NCBI GenBank assembly: GCA_964460615.1
Contig: CAYWPX010000009.1
Span: 19,509-83,508, forward strand
Direction of reading: 5' to 3'
Source: an uncultured Planctomycetia bacterium
Lineage (GTDB): Bacteria > Omnitrophota > Gorgyraeia > CAYWPX01
Length of the DNA: 64,000 bases
The notes beneath the pieces are model-generated. The model had not been told where the DNA came from. It did no database searches and worked only from the letters and a program-made list of their open reading frames with translations. A program made the translations under genes and the position numbers. How positions within the stretch are numbered: the first letter of the stretch is position 1; each line of letters opens with the position of its first letter. Shown here piece by piece: positions 1,446 through 60,037 of this stretch.

Positions 1446-1521
1446 TGGAGCGGGAGGCGGGATTCGAACCCGTGACATCAACCTTGGCAAGGTTGCGCTC
1501 TACCAGCTGAGCTACTCCCGC
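1446..1521 (-). tRNA. tRNA-Gly (anticodon GCC), encoded CCA
   Basis: rc reads GCGGGAGTAGCTCAGCTGGTAGAGCGCAACCTTGCCAAGGTTGATGTCACGGGTTCGAATCCCGCCTCCCGCTCCA. Cloverleaf with anticodon loop TTGCCAA. Confidence 0.85.
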
Positions 1522-1617
1522 GAAACAATCAAATGAACAAAAAAATTAACTTATTTAAGGTCCTTCAGTTGCTCCAGTTTGTCGCAACTTCAGGATCAAA
1601 TCTTGCTTCGCAAGATT

Positions 1618-1702
1618 TGGTGGGCAAGGAGAGAGTTGAACTCTCAAGGGTTACCCCATACGGTCCTAAGCCGTACGCGTATGCCAGTTCCGCCACTTGC
1701 CC
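1618..1702 (-). tRNA. tRNA-Leu (anticodon TAG), long variable arm, encoded CCA
   Basis: rc reads GGGCAAGTGGCGGAACTGGCATACGCGTACGGCTTAGGACCGTATGGGGTAACCCTTGAGAGTTCAACTCTCTCCTTGCCCACCA. Anticodon stem TACGG/CCGTA, loop CTTAGGA. Confidence 0.8.
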
Positions 1703-1763
1703 GATACAGAATTAGATAAAACTACCTTGATTTAATCGGGTAATTACCCTTATTCTCCTACCC

Positions 1764-2012
1764 TATCAAAAAATTTGGTACCCCCAACAGGGGTCGTCTA
1801 CTACGTTTCGCTGATTGCTCAACTGCGTAGACTCACCTCATTTGCTTACGCTCCGTGACTCGGAGCTTATCCTCGCCTGCCGTAAGGCGGCTCGGCGCAA
1901 ATTCGCTTCTGAAATTCTTTTTTTGAATTTCATCCCGAGATTGTTTGATATAAAACAATCGAGGGGGTATTCCTATCAGAATTATCAAATTTGGTACCCC
2001 CAACAGGGGTCG
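1764..2012. repeat. ~30-bp direct repeats (1764-1796 and 1983-2012) = duplicated 3' terminus of tRNA-Lys(CTT), flanking a ~190-bp non-coding insert
   Basis: tatcaaa(aa)atttggtacccccaacaggggtcg occurs twice. The second copy is the genuine tRNA 3' end (T-loop to CCA); the first is followed by unrelated hairpin-rich sequence. Confidence 0.8.
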
Positions 2013-2067
2013 AACCTGTGACACCCTGATTAAGAGTCAGGTGCTCTACCAACTGAGCTATGGGGGC
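1992..2067 (-). tRNA. tRNA-Lys (anticodon CTT), encoded CCA
   Basis: rc reads GCCCCCATAGCTCAGTTGGTAGAGCACCTGACTCTTAATCAGGGTGTCACAGGTTCGACCCCTGTTGGGGGTACCA. Anticodon loop CTCTTAA. Confidence 0.8.
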
Positions 2068-2354
2068 AACTACAAATCAAAAATTCAATTTAAAACATCA
2101 AAAACAGTATAAACTCATTAACCATAGCCCACTTACAATGAATCTTATGGCACAATAAGTATTATGAGCAAATTCCCTTAATAAATTGAAGCTAAATTAT
2201 AACAAAATATTAGATAAGAGTCAACTATGGTTTTAGAAATAATTTTTTGAGCAATTTCTAAATATAATTATAAAGAACAGGCGCTTCTAAGCATTTTTTA
2301 GCCTAATTTATGCCATTATAACTCAGATTCCCGGGTCTAAAGATTAAAAAAGAA

Positions 2355-2536
2355 CATCTTTATTAAATTCTGGCGCGCCCGGCAGCTTGTCCGCCAATGA
2401 ATTGTGGCGGAGAGTCGACATTCTTTACTAATTTCCTTTGAAACATCTAATTCTGGCGCGCCCGGCAGCTTGTCCGCCAATGAATTGTGGCGGAGAGTCG
2501 ACATTCTTTACTAATTTCCTTTGAAACATCTAATTC
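2355..2536. repeat. Tandem 83-bp repeat (2.2 copies); each unit begins with the 3'-terminal 18 nt of tRNA-Arg plus a hairpin (ccgccaatgaattgtggcgg). The last unit runs into the real tRNA.
   Basis: ttctggcgcgcccggcagcttgtccgccaatgaattgtggcggagagtcgacattctttactaatttcctttgaaacatctaa is present at 2368-2450 and 2451-2533, then ttctggcgcgcccggcag continues as tRNA-Arg. Confidence 0.85.
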
Positions 2537-2613
2537 TGGCGCGCCCGGCAGGAGTCGAACCTGCGACCAAGTGGTTCGAAGCCACCTACTCTATCCAGCT
2601 GAGCTACGGGCGC
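2537..2613 (-). tRNA. tRNA-Arg (anticodon TCG), encoded CCA
   Basis: rc reads GCGCCCGTAGCTCAGCTGGATAGAGTAGGTGGCTTCGAACCACTTGGTCGCAGGTTCGACTCCTGCCGGGCGCGCCA. Anticodon loop CTTCGAA. Confidence 0.75.
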
Positions 2614-2663: not shown

Positions 2664-2795
2664 AGTAGGTGGCTTAGAGCCACCTACTCCCTGCCTGCCG
2701 GCCCTCTGAAATCTAAAAGATTTCGAGGCCTTTAGTCCCGGAAATGCGTAGCATTTCACGGGGCAGGCAGGTATCCAGCTGAGCTACGGGCGCAA
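2664..2795 (-). pseudogene. tRNA-Arg-derived fragment (5' acceptor/D-arm and anticodon stem-loop, no T-arm) interrupted by an 82-bp palindrome-ended element
   Basis: rc reads GCGCCCGTAGCTCAGCTGGATA + [CCTGCCTGCC...GGCAGGCAGG] + GAGTAGGTGGCTCTAAGCCACCTACT. The first 22 nt are identical to the tRNA-Arg 5' end and no 3' half follows. Confidence 0.6.
2690..2771. mobile_element. MITE-like element: 12-bp terminal inverted repeats CCTGCCTGCCGG / (G)GGGCAGGCAGG enclosing ~58 bp with two internal hairpins; inserted in the pseudo-tRNA
   Basis: Termini match the dispersed 20-bp palindrome found at 47217, 47237, 52923 and 60007. Interior hairpins tgaaatct/agatttca and gaaatgc/gcatttc. Confidence 0.5.
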
Positions 2796-2844
2796 AAACA
2801 TTAAAATTCTATGGTGTTACTTAAAAAGATCCCTGATCCCAAGG

Positions 2845-9219: not shown

Positions 9220-9300
9220 ATCTGTTTCTGTATGGCGGATCCGCCTCGCCAGCTTCGCTGGCAGGCGAGATTTCGCCATCTCGCCAACTTTGTTGGCGGA

Positions 9301-9390
9301 TGGCGGAGAGGGAGAGATTCGAACTCTCGGTACCTTGCGGTACACGCGCTCTCCAAGCGCGCGCCATAAACCGGACTAGGCGACCTCTCC
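9301..9390 (-). tRNA. tRNA-Ser (anticodon GGA), long variable arm, encoded CCA
   Basis: rc reads GGAGAGGTCGCCTAGTCCGGTTTATGGCGCGCGCTTGGAGAGCGCGTGTACCGCAAGGTACCGAGAGTTCGAATCTCTCCCTCTCCGCCA. Anticodon stem CGCGC/GCGCG, loop TTGGAGA. Confidence 0.75.
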
Positions 9391-9858
9391 TAGAAAATTG
9401 TGAAGCAATTTTCACTCTGAATTTTGACGAGAAAAATATCGAAGAAATTTTTCCGTCGTTATAAATTCAGAGTAATTCATAAAATTTCGTTGCATCTCGC
9501 CAAATTTTTGCTCTGGCGCAAAAATAATTAAATTTCATTCGTTATGGCGGCGCCGCTTGCTCCCTGCTCGGCTTGTTAAACTCAAAAGTCTTTTATCAAA
9601 TGAAATCCCGCGTTAGCGGGGTCTCCTCGCCACGGTCGCCAGCGGCATCTCGCCAAATTTTTGCTCTGGCGCAAAAATTTGGCGGAAGGTGAAGGATTCG
9701 AACCCTCGAAGGGATTACTCCCTTAACGGTTTTCAAGACCGCCGCATTCAACCGCTCTGCCAACCTTCCTAGAAATTGTGAAACAATTTCACTCTGAATT
9801 TTGACAAGAAAAATATCGAAGAGATTTTTCTGTCGGTTTAAATTCAGAGTTACCTTAT
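9391..9858. repeat. Tandemly duplicated tRNA-Ser unit: ~90-bp upstream segment with 11-bp inverted repeats (actctgaattt...aaattcagagt) + tRNA + downstream 13-bp-stem palindrome gccaaatttttgc-tctggc-gcaaaaatttggc
   Basis: 9391-9480 ~ 9770-9858 (~85% identity). gcatctcgccaaatttttgctctggcgcaaaaat occurs at 9493-9527 and 9648-9682. A degenerate version lies at 9270-9300. Confidence 0.8.
9680..9769 (-). tRNA. tRNA-Ser (anticodon TGA), encoded CCA
   Basis: rc reads GGAAGGTTGGCAGAGCGGTTGAATGCGGCGGTCTTGAAAACCGTTAAGGGAGTAATCCCTTCGAGGGTTCGAATCCTTCACCTTCCGCCA. Closely resembles canonical bacterial tRNA-Ser(UGA). Confidence 0.85.
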
Positions 9859-23079: not shown

Positions 23080-23190
23080 TTATTTTTTACAGACACATTC
23101 ACTCGCTTTCTTTTTGCATCCGCTGCAAACCCCTTTTTCGATTGGCTTGCCACAATTCTTACACGGTGTACACCCGCAAACTTCGCACAT
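23080..23190 (-). CDS. small Cys-rich peptide (36 aa, 11 Cys), metallothionein-like or precursor-peptide-like
   Basis: MCEVCGCTPCKNCGKPIEKGVCSGCKKKASECVCKK. GGGGGTGA Shine-Dalgarno 6 nt upstream. TATAAT-like -10 ~70 nt upstream. Not in the ORF track (<60 aa). Confidence 0.4.
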   Translation of the reverse strand: MCEVCGCTPCKNCGKPIEKGVCSGCKKKASECVCKK

Positions 23191-23411: not shown

Positions 23412-23965
23412 AAAATTAAGAAATTTTAGCAACAATCGCATGGACAAAAAATAAACCTCTTATTTTTTTAAGAGGTTTTAATTGAATTTTGCCCCTCGTT
23501 TTGCCTAAATTGCTTCTTCTCGACGCAATTTACGGCAACTCGGGATTGGTGAGCCGCCCGTGACTCTCCCGACGCAATCCTTTGGATAGGTCGGGATTCC
23601 GACTTACCTGTTTTATGGGTAACGTCGGAAGAACACGGCGTATCTACCAATGAATAAAATTGAAAGACTGAGAGGGTATATGTCCATGCGCTTAAAATAG
23701 TACTAAAATTCCTTAATTTTCAAGAACACAAAATTAAGAAATTTTAGTATTAATCGCATGGACAAAAAATAAACCTCTTATTTTTTTAAGAGGTTTTAAT
23801 TGAATTTTGCCCCTCGTTTTGCCTAAATTGCTTCTTCTCGACGCAATTTACGGCAACTCGGGATTGGTGAGCCGCCCGTGACTCTCCCGACGCAATCCTT
23901 TGGATAGGTCGGGATTCCGACTTACCTGTTTTATGGGTAACGTCGGAAGAACACGGTGTATTTGG
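23412..23965. repeat. Two ~232-bp direct repeats (23412-23643 and 23731-23960, period ~319 bp). Each contains a bidirectional terminator hairpin and the 3'-terminal 20 nt of tRNA-Lys(TTT).
   Basis: Near-identical blocks. tggtgagccgcccgtgactc at 23548-23566 and 23865-23884 equals the tRNA 3' end at 24143-24162. ORFs 23468-23650 and 23786-24001 lie inside the repeats and are likely spurious. Confidence 0.85.
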
Positions 23966-24103
23966 TATTAACGGTATCGGGATTGGGGGGCTATTACGCA
24001 CATGCTCTTAAAGAGAAATGCCGATATTCTTAAGATATTGTAAAAATTCCTTAATTTTAATTACAAAATTAAGGAATTTTTACAATAAGAATATGGACCA
24101 AAA

Positions 24104-24142
24104 TAAAAAATCATTCTTAATTTTAAGAATGATTTTTTATTT
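24104..24142. terminator. bidirectional rho-independent terminator abutting the tRNA-Lys(TTT) 3' end
   Basis: aaaaaatcattcttaa-tttt-aagaatgatttttt: perfect 11-bp stem flanked by A- and T-tracts. Confidence 0.7.
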
Positions 24143-24218
24143 TGGTGAGCCGCCCGTGACTCGAACACGGCACAACCACATTAAAAGTGTGGTGCTCTAC
24201 CTGATGAGCTAGCGGCCC
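24143..24218 (-). tRNA. tRNA-Lys (anticodon TTT), encoded CCA
   Basis: rc reads GGGCCGCTAGCTCATCAGGTAGAGCACCACACTTTTAATGTGGTTGTGCCGTGTTCGAGTCACGGGCGGCTCACCA. Anticodon loop CTTTTAA. Confidence 0.85.
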
Positions 24219-24566
24219 ACGTTAAACTTAAATCTAAATTTCAATACTAGGCAATCTGACTGATGTCGCTTTGTTGATGTCCCAAAAAACTTAAGTTTTT
24301 TGGGATGAATTAGCTCTTGATCCTTAAAAACTCGTTTTTCTGCCTGCTGCCTTAGGGCAGTCAGGCAGTAATCATGATCTAATTCTACGGCCCACGTTAA
24401 ACTTAAATCTAAATTTCAATACTAGGCAATCTGACTGATGTCGCTTTGTTGATGTCCCAAAAAACTTAAGTTTTTTGGGATGAATTAGCTCTTGATCCTT
24501 AAAAACTCGTTTTTCTGCCTGCTGCCTTAGGGCAGTCAGGCAGTAATCATGATCTAATTCTACGGC
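24216..24566. repeat. Tandem 175-bp repeat x2 (+ partial third) between frr and tRNA-Lys(TTT). Each unit carries a perfect 24-bp palindrome cccaaaaaacttaagttttttggg and an imperfect GC hairpin ctgcctgctgcc-ttag-ggcagtcaggcag.
   Basis: Units 24216-24390 and 24391-24565 are near-identical; the unit boundary includes the first nt of the tRNA 5' end (cggccc). Confidence 0.85.
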
Positions 24567-24588
24567 CCCCTTTAATTCAAAATCTAAA

Positions 24589-46976: not shown

Positions 46977-47216
46977 CTTTATAGCAACTGTTATGTATGT
47001 TTTTAATGCAAATTCTATGAGTTAAAAATTATATAAAGTAGGAATAATTTCATCAATATATTCTTTATAATTGTTTTTTTCATTTTTCCTTATAACAATA
47101 TAACAATTAAAATTTATAAGAACTGTACCTATTTTTGCTTATTCTATTGTTCTATTGCTCAATTTTCAATTGCTCTACCAAAATTTGCCAAAAACAAATT
47201 CTGGTTGCCCGGTAAG

Positions 47217-47256
47217 CCTGCCTGCCGGCAGGCAGGCCTGCCTGCCGGCAGGCAGG
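47217..47256. repeat. two tandem copies of the perfect 20-bp palindrome CCTGCCTGCCGGCAGGCAGG, inserted inside a duplicated copy of the tRNA-Gln 3' end
   Basis: tggttgcccggtaag|PAL|PAL|gattcgg versus the genuine tRNA 3' end tggttgcccggtaaggattcg at 47392-47412. Confidence 0.9.
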
Positions 47257-47391
47257 GATTCGGCGCCCTTCGTACGGCTTCGCTTACGCTACGCCAGTTA
47301 CTACGGGTCGGCCACCCGCCTCATCTACATATTCTCCTTTTCGTCGAATATATGAGGCTCCCTTCGAATCCTTACTTGTAGTTAATAATTT

Positions 47392-47465
47392 TGGTTGCCC
47401 GGTAAGGATTCGAACCTTAACGCTCAGACCCAAATTCTGATGTGCTACCATTACACTACCGGGCA
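47392..47465 (-). tRNA. tRNA-Gln (anticodon TTG), encoded CCA
   Basis: rc reads TGCCCGGTAGTGTAATGGTAGCACATCAGAATTTGGGTCTGAGCGTTAAGGTTCGAATCCTTACCGGGCAACCA. Anticodon stem TCAGA/TCTGA, loop ATTTGGG. Confidence 0.75.
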
Positions 47466-47585
47466 ATAAAGTTTTTTGAATGAGCTTATCTTATTAAGTC
47501 ATGCGATCATGATGATCCATAAAAGATCTGGTTCACCGCACTACCGGGCAATGTCAAGGTTCCTTCACACCAATAATACTATTTC

Positions 47586-52739: not shown

Positions 52740-52922
52740 TACTAACCACCTAAAAGCTGTAGATTTTCTTAAAAAATCACTATCTTTCTCTCTTTTTATG
52801 TCTATCTCTTCTCAATCTTTTTTTTCTTTTATGCTTAGCCATTTTTTTGCGTTTTCTTTTTCTTCCGCAAGGCATGCTGTACCCCTTTCTATTTAGCTCT
52901 TGGCTCATAGTTACCTATGAGC

Positions 52923-52942
52923 CCTGCCTGCCGGCAGGCAGG
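52923..52942. repeat. 20-bp perfect palindrome CCTGCCTGCCGGCAGGCAGG flanked by TATGAGC direct repeats; adjacent hairpin ggctcatag-ttac-ctatgagcc
   Basis: Identical to the copies at 47217, 47237 and 60007. Confidence 0.9.
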
Positions 52943-52954
52943 TATGAGCTCGTA

Positions 52955-59929: not shown

Positions 59930-60006
59930 TTATTTGATTGATATATTAAATTAGAGCTCTAAATTATTTTACTTTTGGTAGTAATGTTTTTTCTTTAGCT
60001 ATGAGC

Positions 60007-60026
60007 CCTGCCTGCCGGCAGGCAGG
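60007..60026. repeat. 20-bp perfect palindrome CCTGCCTGCCGGCAGGCAGG flanked by TATGAGC direct repeats (glyA-rpiB intergenic)
   Basis: gctatgagc|PAL|tatgagctat. Confidence 0.9.
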
Positions 60027-60037
60027 TATGAGCTATT

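Follow-up and report, generated by a model that had tools for sequence, protein, structure and literature searches.

Behind an intact tRNA-Arg gene of an Omnitrophota bacterium, the last bases of the tRNA recur head to tail in a perfect tandem array, and this layout raises the question of whether the copies were left by a mobile element, form units of a functional RNA, arose by ordinary recombination or were made up by the assembler. The DNA that we analysed, hereafter the window, is a stretch of 64,000 nucleotides and is part of the core chromosome of this organism. Homologues of three of its proteins bear Omnitrophica or Omnitrophota names. The ORFs that were scanned with Pfam (nearly all of those of at least 150 aa) are mostly housekeeping genes, including rpsB-tsf-pyrH-frr, lpx genes, bamA, dnaB, ssb, pth, prs, clpX, serS, rtcB and glyA, and Pfam found no integrase, transposase, reverse transcriptase or other mobile-element gene among the window ORFs of at least 150 aa. 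On the minus strand, the array lies in the order DUF748 gene, pseudo-tRNA-Arg, tRNA-Arg, array, strong promoter-like site, tRNA-Lys(CTT), tRNA-Leu, tRNA-Gly and PTS-EIIA.

Tandem Repeats Finder (TRF) placed the array at 2366-2551, with a period of 83, 2.2 copies (2.24), 100% matches, no indels and a score of 372. A repeat search of the window delimited the two complete 83-nt copies as 2366-2448 and 2449-2531, and the 18-mer TTCTGGCGCGCCCGGCAG occurs three times (2368, 2451 and 2534), always on the plus strand, when none is expected from 100 shuffles. Both ARAGORN and Rfam map tRNA-Arg(TCG) to 2537-2613 on the minus strand, so that the third, partial copy is the genuine 3' end of the tRNA; the repeat is on the strand of the tRNA, starts directly downstream of it and runs into the gene. 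Read in the direction of transcription, the order is tRNA, spacer, block, spacer, block. The repeated block comprises 20 nt, namely tRNA positions 62-76 (CTGCCGGGCGCGCCA, 15 nt including CCA) and the five trailer nucleotides GAATT, and is present in three exact copies, each with the 3'-terminal 15 nt of the tRNA including CCA. The parts of the locus are as follows.

2537..2613, minus strand: intact tRNA-Arg(TCG) with encoded CCA (ARAGORN; Rfam tRNA, 66.2 bits)
2366..2551, minus strand: tandem array, 83-bp unit x 2.24, 100% identical (TRF and repeat search)
2532..2551, minus strand: block copy 1, CTGCCGGGCGCGCCA followed by GAATT; its 2537-2551 are the last 15 nt of the tRNA
2469..2531, minus strand: spacer copy 1, 63 nt
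2473..2494, minus strand: hairpin TCCGCCA-CAATTCAT-TGGCGGA with a 7-bp stem, in spacer copy 1 (fold prediction)
2495..2501, minus strand: T-loop word TCGACTC (tRNA positions 55-61) in spacer copy 1, 26 nt upstream of the block
2449..2468, minus strand: block copy 2, displaced tRNA 3' fragment
2386..2448, minus strand: spacer copy 2, 63 nt, identical to copy 1
2390..2411, minus strand: identical TCCGCCA...TGGCGGA hairpin in spacer copy 2 (fold prediction)
2412..2418, minus strand: T-loop word TCGACTC in spacer copy 2
2366..2385, minus strand: block copy 3, displaced tRNA 3' fragment, after which unrelated sequence (TAATAAAGATGTTC...) follows

The initial annotation had reported 2.2 tandem copies of an 83-bp unit built from the tRNA-Arg 3' end, and TRF, the repeat search and the 18-mer count all bear this out; the range that it gave, 2355-2536, goes with a correct description but misses each end of the array by about 11-15 bp. 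The hairpin that it saw downstream of the tRNA end is also there, and is better placed between the T-loop word and the remaining tRNA 3' end. The array has no coding capacity, the 63-nt interval contains no real ORF, and exact look-up of a spurious 55-aa ORF across the array returned no record from other assemblies. Using blast, the TCCGCCA...TGGCGGA spacer was not found outside the array within the 64-kb window, and it thus lacks the dispersal of a REP/BIME-like element. A metagenome scan with the 20-nt hairpin core gave four matches, three of them in GC-rich coding DNA and the fourth (L007) consisting of 24 nt within an unrelated hairpin-rich spacer; all four were judged to be chance or uninformative matches.

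Since the copies are completely identical, the source is apparently metagenome-derived and short-k assemblies break at this place, an assembler might have expanded or invented the repeat. We consider this very improbable. A second data set provides a Logan contig of run SRR12487046 (L046) that was reached via a neighbouring protein. Logan is built with k=31. The contig is 100% identical to the window over their common part, which takes in the pseudo-tRNA, tRNA-Arg and 16 nt directly beyond CCA, and it stops at ...CCAGAATTAGATGTTTCA, so that its final 31-mer begins one base ahead of CTGCC and the following 31-mer would fall entirely within the repeat unit. If the CTGCC... block has two left contexts, a k=31 unitig must end precisely where L046 ends, and the break point is therefore exactly the one predicted for a real second left context. 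L046 provides independent support for at least one extra copy of the block in the second data set, and the count of two extra copies comes from the window assembly. The longest internal repeat measures 103 nt and should be resolved with respect to copy number at k above ~105 with 150-nt reads. In addition, arrays at other tRNAs of the window have diverged copies, which is beyond what an assembler would make: a 175-bp array shows 98% identity, and the units linked to tRNA-Lys(TTT) differ by substitutions and indels. Three Logan contigs illustrate that short-k assemblies break at such arrays beside tRNA genes.

A GTDB scan with the 5' 43-mer of tRNA-Arg returned 31 matches, of which 30 are gammaproteobacteria with a convergent tRNA and one is an Omnitrophota genome (L028); this is the only other Omnitrophota tRNA-Arg with a complete trailer, and the trailer contains no fragment. 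A related Omnitrophota contig (L002) ends 24 nt past the CCA of tRNA-Arg. The neighbouring DUF748 protein found no relative in a GTDB scan and no record by exact look-up, and the contigs of relatives that were reached via PTS-EIIA and RRF end at or before the tRNA regions.

On the other side of tRNA-Arg lies a pseudo-tRNA copy, to which the initial annotation had also drawn attention and which repeat search and sequence reading established as real. Its two pieces, 2798..2772 and 2689..2678, jointly correspond to tRNA-Arg nt -5 to +33, with an 82-nt insert exactly between nt 21 and 22.

2772..2798, minus strand: pseudo-tRNA-Arg part 1, TTTTT followed by tRNA nt 1-21/22
2690..2771, minus strand: highly structured 82-nt insert in the D-loop of the pseudo-tRNA (fold z -6.6; blast)
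2665..2689, minus strand: pseudo-tRNA-Arg part 2, GAGTAGGTGGCT (tRNA nt 22-33), extended to a perfect 10-bp palindrome GTAGGTGGCT-CTA-AGCCACCTAC

The ends of the insert are the two arms of a palindrome, CCTGCCTGCC / GGCAGGCAGG, that is found intact at 47216-47256 (twice), 52922-52945 and 60006-60029. Being bounded by the arms of a dispersed palindrome, the 82-nt insert is a split-open REP-like element. The palindrome dispersed in the window (CCTGCCTGCCGGCAGGCAGG) differs from the hairpin of the array. In L002, an intact tRNA-Arg directly follows the DUF748 gene, and the sequence context on the upstream side of this tRNA is similar to that of the pseudo-copy; this placement suggests that the pseudo-tRNA-Arg probably sits at the ancestral position of tRNA-Arg. 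Several other identities were considered for the locus and set aside. Rfam at permissive thresholds, applied to three tRNA neighbourhoods, gave tRNAs only and hence no hammerhead or other ribozyme in the insert; ARAGORN gave no permuted or two-piece tmRNA, and G3:U70 is absent; a split or intron-containing tRNA of the archaeal type does not agree with the bacterial gene content and with a pseudo-copy that has no T arm; and a CAST homing spacer was rejected since the window has no cas or tns genes.

Displaced tRNA ends are not confined to tRNA-Arg. Using an exact-word script, we searched downstream of each of the eight window tRNAs for same-strand copies of at least the last 12 nt of the gene's own tRNA and found such 3' fragments at four of them. 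tRNA-Lys(CTT) has one copy, 204 nt downstream, starting at tRNA position 56; tRNA-Arg has two, 71 and 154 nt downstream, starting at position 62; tRNA-Lys(TTT) has two, 266 and 584 nt downstream, starting at position 57; and tRNA-Gln has one, 178 nt downstream, starting at position 62. Fragments of the tRNA 5' end occur upstream of three of the eight (Arg, Gln and Lys(TTT)). The proposal that tRNA-Arg is a recombination hotspot is therefore true but too narrow. Among 33 tRNAs of other retrieved loci, in which E. coli tyrT and tyrV were purposely included, the pattern was found at two other tRNAs. Upstream of tRNA-Lys(TTT) lies the 175-bp array already mentioned, with 2.1 copies and a junction word of only 6 nt, GGGCCG, which is characteristic of a duplication that arose between short direct repeats. 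The units downstream of the same tRNA have an exceptionally stable predicted RNA fold (z = -9.0), and each includes a terminator hairpin of its own together with an AT-rich palindrome, possibly a promoter or operator. An attempt to recognise the insert behind tRNA-Lys(CTT) as ancestral spacer was abandoned, as its similarity to the Lys-Leu spacer of a relative (L051) is not significant.

The closest known counterpart is found in E. coli. Its tyrT locus was reportedly described by Egan and Landy in 1978 and by Rossi and co-workers in 1981, and Bosl and Kersten are said to have recognised rttR as a processed product of the tyrT transcript in 1991. Downstream of tyrV in E. coli K-12, TRF finds a 178-bp unit in 3.1 copies with 95% identity; the 19 nt that close tRNA-Tyr, AATCCTTCCCCCACCACCA, also close each unit, and a further copy lies in the tyrT-tyrV spacer. 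The region is annotated as rttR/tpr, and the Rfam family RF00391 (RtT) matches four copies in K-12 with 133-138 bits. The annotated rttR (L045, 1267-1437) starts 8 nt past tyrV, and its end coincides with the CCA that closes the next 19-nt fragment. In a set of 5,426 complete E. coli genomes, the number of annotated RtT copies ranges from 0 to 4 and the length between narI and tyrV changes in steps of ~178 bp, indicating that arrays of this type expand and contract; by analogy, the copy number of the Arg array may vary as well.

Judged by its anatomy at the sequence level, the Arg array is the same kind of object as this 178-bp repeat and belongs with it to a class of tRNA-distal tandem repeats. 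Each directly follows a tRNA gene, shares its strand and has a non-integer number of copies (2.2 and 3.1). The units of both close with the 3'-terminal 15-19 nt of the tRNA, CCA included, their fragments start within the T loop or immediately after it, and the abutting T-loop word precedes a hairpin-rich insertion (26 nt in Arg, 68 nt in E. coli). On the other hand, the two share no sequence or covariance-model similarity: RF00391 was found neither in the window at the gathering score (45 bits) nor in 1300-2900 at E <= 10, and no Rfam family matches the Arg unit at E <= 10. The units measure 83 bp and 178 bp, respectively, and the copies are identical in Arg but 95% alike in E. coli. Whereas RtT has a long-range stem in which the fragment start pairs with an upstream complement, and a ...CCA tail, the Arg unit contains no complement to CTGCCGGG and its minimum free energy (MFE) structure shows the 7-bp hairpin only. 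The E. coli region also encodes the basic-peptide ORF tpr, of which the Arg array has no equivalent. Finally, RtT belongs to Enterobacteria, while the Arg array belongs to Omnitrophota and is known here from DNA only.

The two tRNAs with the pattern among the other retrieved loci provide further analogues. One is in the gammaproteobacterium Reinekea marinisedimentorum DSM 15388 (L024), where 3.0 copies of a 160-bp unit with 90% identity follow tRNA-Arg(TCG). The tRNA is the same isoacceptor as in the window, with an identical 5' 43 nt, and each unit holds the 18-nt tRNA 3' end with CCA and has the T-loop word GAGTTCGA 21 nt upstream of the fragment. The spacer is unrelated to that of the window, and each unit has a complement, GGAGAGAT, to the fragment start, as RtT does and the window array does not. 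With copies that are 90% alike, the Reinekea array is older than the Arg array of the window. We know of no description of this 160-bp repeat. The other, in a Cellvibrionales MAG, is a decayed two-copy version in which the terminator is included.

The recurrence of T-loop words ahead of the fragments was examined by asking whether the 22 nt of the tRNA that lie just upstream of the fragment have a word in common with the unit. Eight spacers were compared, and in five of them, representing four loci, the longest common word proves to be the very word that adjoins the fragment in the tRNA. At these four loci, the word recurs 21-68 nt upstream of the fragment, at the distances given here.

Window Arg: TCGACTC at 26 nt
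Window Lys(TTT), both units: (G)CCGTGTTC at 64 nt
E. coli Tyr: AAGGTTCG at 68 nt
Reinekea Arg: GAGTTCGA at 21 nt

Shuffled sequences match the word length in 0.6-4.4% of trials per locus, before the abutting position is required. For Arg, a 7-nt word occurs anywhere in 88 of 2000 shuffles, again before that requirement, so the observation is weak singly and stronger across loci. The presence of the abutting word upstream of the fragment suggests that the units are tRNA portions which extend from the T loop as far as CCA and are interrupted by an insertion with a hairpin. When each spacer was aligned locally to its whole tRNA, residual similarity was not significant. For Arg, TCGACTC-TCCGCCACAATTC may alternatively be an older, decayed copy of TCGACTC-CTGCC...CCAGAATT; under both readings, the hairpin of the array is embedded in tRNA-derived sequence. 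All 3' fragments, whether from the window, E. coli, Reinekea or a further locus (L040), begin at tRNA positions 56-62, in the T loop or the 3' strand of the T stem.

Considering these observations together, we favour, with a probability of roughly 0.55, a young partial duplication of the tRNA-Arg 3' end in the trailer of the single tRNA-Arg(TCG) gene that was expanded by unequal exchange or slippage, and whose transcript would be part of the trailer and trimmed away. Initially, the 3' part of the tRNA, comprising the stretch between T loop and CCA and some adjoining bases, would have been copied to a place ~83 bp beyond the gene, with the 26-nt hairpin segment between this copy and its own T-loop word, or else with a spacer that represents an older decayed tRNA 3' copy. 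Unequal homologous exchange or replication slippage between the two resulting 20-bp direct repeats would then have added one further identical 83-bp unit, giving the observed block-spacer-block-spacer-block. Replication slippage and unequal crossing-over between short direct repeats are established general mechanisms. Duplications of this sort have the same repeat-unit-repeat-unit-repeat layout as the Arg array, with identical copies when young and with no dedicated enzyme, and the 175-bp x 2.1 array with its 6-nt junction word provides an instance within the window. The n.2-copy layout and the perfect identity thus point to exchange or slippage between two flanking direct repeats and, taken with the Lys(TTT) array and the polymorphism in E. 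coli, lead us to regard the step from one to two units as recombinational. Of the two mechanisms offered by the initial annotation, slippage or unequal exchange therefore gains support from the identity, the layout and the Lys(TTT) parallel, and an att core as the cause of the array does not. Elsewhere in this genome, the same process would have affected further tRNA genes, both 5' and 3' of them.

Regarding expression, no terminator was predicted within or after the array and no terminator-like site was found in 2366-2536. The TCCGCCA...TGGCGGA hairpin has no U-tract, being followed by CAAGCUGCC, and is hence not an intrinsic terminator. With no strong terminator between tRNA-Arg and the array, the latter is probably transcribed, and most likely as a tRNA trailer that is subsequently trimmed. 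The main weakness of partial duplication is that random breakpoints should spread along the tRNA, yet they cluster at positions 56-62, which would fit integrases specific for the T loop or the T-stem/acceptor junction, or a structural or selective constraint. Moreover, at 20 bp the founding repeat is longer than chance microhomology would readily explain, and the residual similarity between the Arg spacer and the tRNA is weak (a 7-nt word found in 88 of 2000 shuffles). Duplication between short direct repeats alone thus leaves unaccounted for both the identity of the founding 20-bp repeat with the tRNA 3' end and the clustering of breakpoints in the T loop.

This clustering is what a tyrosine-integrase element would explain whose attP copied the tRNA-Arg 3' end, which integrated at the T-stem/acceptor junction and was later mostly deleted, the array then being formed by repeated integration or recombination between att sites. 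Sublocations of integrase sites within tRNA genes were reportedly defined by Williams in 2002. Like an Islander genomic island, the Arg locus has an intact tDNA and, downstream, a 3' fragment in the same orientation that starts at position 62, the junction, and continues through CCA and 5 nt beyond; the pattern recurs at four tRNAs, all fragments begin within positions 56-62, the site class of many integrases, and viral contigs carry classical 3' halves of tRNA-Arg(ACG) with the identical 20-mer. In the Islander survey, 3760 of 3919 islands have 3' fragments, 1836 lie at the T-stem region site, 125 tandem arrays were recorded, and the T-stem/acceptor junction is the crossover site of many integrases (PMC4383910). 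The same survey demands an integrase gene, an interval of 2-200 kb and a fragment that begins in the anticodon loop, in the T loop or at the T/acceptor junction (PMC4383910), whereas no tyrosine integrase lies between the Arg tDNA and its fragment and the interval measures 63 nt, without cargo. Across the affected tRNAs, intervals are 63-300 bp and gene-free, and no integrase was found among the window ORFs of at least 150 aa. Fragments of the 5' end, which occur in 159 of 3919 islands (4%; PMC4383910), are nearly as frequent in the window as 3' fragments (3/8 tRNAs). The initial annotation had proposed to look for integrases and for circular elements with the 18-bp core; an attP made of block and spacer was not found in the 64-kb window, in IMG/VR or among the collected phages and plasmids, where the spacer had no match either, and the Lys fragment blocks were not found in IMG/VR. 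All matches of an IMG/VR scan with the 20-mer block were to tRNA-Arg(ACG) of unrelated hosts, as genes or as 3' halves, and represent another isoacceptor with an unrelated T arm. Furthermore, att recombination makes no split such as the one that places the T-loop word 26 nt upstream of the fragment, and the split T arm at four loci indicates tRNA 3' portions divided by an insertion and not a product of site-specific recombination. An 83-bp circle would also be an implausible substrate for integration. With a gene-free 83-bp unit, no integrase among these ORFs and no phage or plasmid match, the att core is not supported as the cause of the array, and we regard an integrase origin as unlikely overall, with an att scar being possible for the very first displaced fragment.

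The units could also matter as RNA. A functional trailer RNA of the RtT type would be excised by tRNA 3'-end processing into units that each end in ...CCA and act as a small RNA or as a processing or regulatory decoy, with copy number under selection. E. coli offers a precedent, as rttR ends exactly at the CCA of the fragment and is reported to be a processed product of the tyrT transcript (PMC3318445; bioRxiv 10.1101/2024.07.17.603846), and the neighbouring Lys(TTT) units, with their stable fold, terminator hairpin and possible promoter or operator palindrome, also speak for this reading. The Arg unit, in contrast, folds no better than shuffled sequence (z = +0.2), lacks the closing stem of RtT and matches neither RF00391 nor any other Rfam family at E <= 10; its perfectly identical copies leave no covariation to test, the L028 trailer contains no fragment and the L002 contig stops shortly after CCA. 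An RtT-like processed RNA from the Arg array is thus possible but unsupported, and we hold functional units under selection to be improbable. Also unlikely in our view is that the Arg array is the product of a general, undescribed class in which a T arm is split by a hairpin insertion and the unit ends with the 3' strand of the acceptor and CCA, generated by a T-loop-directed process or kept for an RNA function. Its members would be the four of eight window tRNAs within 64 kb of Omnitrophota DNA, E. coli RtT and Reinekea, and the process might be, for example, a hairpin element that inserts into the T loops of redundant tRNA copies, or copying primed by tRNA 3' fragments.

Irrespective of its origin, the Arg feature belongs to the known tyrT-type kind, and such fragments are unusually frequent in this genome. 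tRNA fragments can be mis-called by annotation pipelines (PMC9897764), and arrays like this one create both mis-callable tRNA fragments and breaks in short-k assemblies, although this practical value is modest. If any of the units are functional, the RNA with z = -9 behind tRNA-Lys(TTT) would be the best candidate. The tyrT/RtT architecture, usually seen as an enterobacterial curiosity, recurs across unrelated phyla with a common anatomy of a T-loop word, a hairpin insertion and then the tRNA 3' end with CCA. Should breakpoints turn out to cluster in the T loop widely and irrespective of integrases, tRNA genes would seem to undergo a process, mutational or selective, that has gone unrecognised, and general clustering would offer a handle on the origin and role of RtT-like RNAs.

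In the tRNA-Lys(CTT)-Leu-Gly cluster, two features were located:

window 1771-1991, region of the tRNA-Lys(CTT) 3' fragment
window 2196-2224, minus strand, promoter-like site 5' of tRNA-Lys(CTT)

The final 21 nt of tRNA-Lys(CTT), together with 5 flanking nt, are duplicated 216 bp 3' of the gene, and the approximately 190 nt between the gene and this copy are GC-rich, with strong predicted structure (z = -5.3). This interval includes the hairpin motif GAAATTC...GAATTTC AGAA, which occurs again 3' of tRNA-Gly at 1363-1388. The promoter-like site is near-consensus (TTGACT-17-TATAAT with extended TG), so the tRNA-Arg gene, along with its 83-bp tandem array, is probably transcribed as a unit separate from the Lys-Leu-Gly genes. 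In both the window (1446-2067) and a related Omnitrophota MAG (L051 4450-4799, GCA_028715645.1), the PTS-EIIA gene has a Lys(CTT)-Leu(TAG)-Gly(GCC) cluster on its 5' side. Unlike the window, however, the MAG cluster has short spacers and is devoid of tRNA fragments, and whereas CCA is encoded in all eight window tRNAs, it is not encoded on the Lys and Leu tRNAs of the MAG.

Duplicated or fragmentary tRNA-linked sequence was also found at the tRNA-Ser and tRNA-Gln genes:

window 9274-9850, duplicated unit of approximately 377 bp containing the tRNA-Ser GGA and TGA genes
window 47198-47552, tRNA-Gln fragment region

In the tRNA-Ser duplication, a 64-nt block precedes each gene on its 5' side (92% identity between blocks), and a 34-nt block is present in two identical copies (9492-9525 and 9645-9678; 100%), the second of which pairs with the tRNA-Ser 3' end as a hairpin. 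The tRNA-Gln gene is flanked by a 5' fragment of 12-14 nt, located 85 bp upstream and adjoining a TTGACA box, and by a 15-nt 3' fragment, located 190 bp downstream and immediately preceded by two tandem CCTGCCTGCCGGCAGGCAGG palindromes.

The CCTGCCTGCCGGCAGGCAGG sequence is also part of a dispersed REP-like element:

window 52922-52945 and 60006-60029, GCTCATA-CCTGCCTGCCGGCAGGCAGG-GCTCATAG, both intergenic
window 52780-52875, minus strand, extremely basic ORF of 31 aa, MPCGRKRKRKKMAKHKRKKRLRRDRHKKRER, directly past the REP-like palindrome

The copy at 52.9 kb lies 5' of this small basic ORF and that at 60.0 kb immediately past the end of a gene. In the pseudo-tRNA-Arg, a partial tRNA-Arg copy, the palindrome (2690-2771) is interrupted by a 62-nt insert with two hairpins. 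No RAYT-type transposase gene was present among window ORFs of at least 150 aa. The sole match to the 31-aa ORF was weak (COX24_C / mS38-like, E = 0.25); the ORF may encode a bS22-type small ribosomal protein.

A counterpart of the Arg array was found in Gammaproteobacteria:

L024 7418-7900 (NZ_SLZR01000004.1, Reinekea marinisedimentorum DSM 15388), tandem array 3' of tRNA-Arg(TCG), period 160 bp, 3.0 copies, 90% identity

In every Reinekea unit, the 18-nt 3' end of the tRNA is accompanied by a T-loop word, 21 nt to its 5' side, and by a sequence complementary to the beginning of the fragment, an architecture resembling that of RtT, the RNA of the tyrT/tyrV-distal 178-bp repeat of E. coli (RF00391); searches of Rfam returned no match to the Reinekea repeat. 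A two-copy, decayed version, terminator included, is found in a Cellvibrionales MAG (L040).

The tRNA-Lys(TTT) gene carries repeats on both sides:

window 24213-24575, tandem array 5' of the gene, period 175 bp, 2.1 copies, 98% identity
window 23452-24142, minus strand, tandem units of approximately 318 bp, two plus a partial third, 3' of the gene
window 23085-23190 (approximate), minus strand, Cys-rich ORF of 36 aa, MCEVCGCTPCKNCGKPIEKGVCSGCKKKASECVCKK

Each 175-bp unit opens with GGGCCG (tRNA nt 1-6); this 5' array is a mirror image of the Arg array. Two Logan contigs, independent assemblies from the same species and from a relative, both stop at most 50 nt past frr, close to this repeat. 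The Cys-rich ORF, for which Pfam gave nothing significant, follows copy 3 of an AT-rich palindrome of approximately 50 nt that forms part of every 318-bp unit, together with a terminator hairpin and an RNA-like segment. The latter is predicted to fold (-82 kcal/mol, z = -9.0) into a long rod-like hairpin incorporating the T-stem halves (CCGTG...CACGG), acceptor 3' strand and CCA of the tRNA. Rfam contained zero matches to the structured segment, which looks like a genuine structured RNA gene that would have originated in the 3' part of the tRNA.
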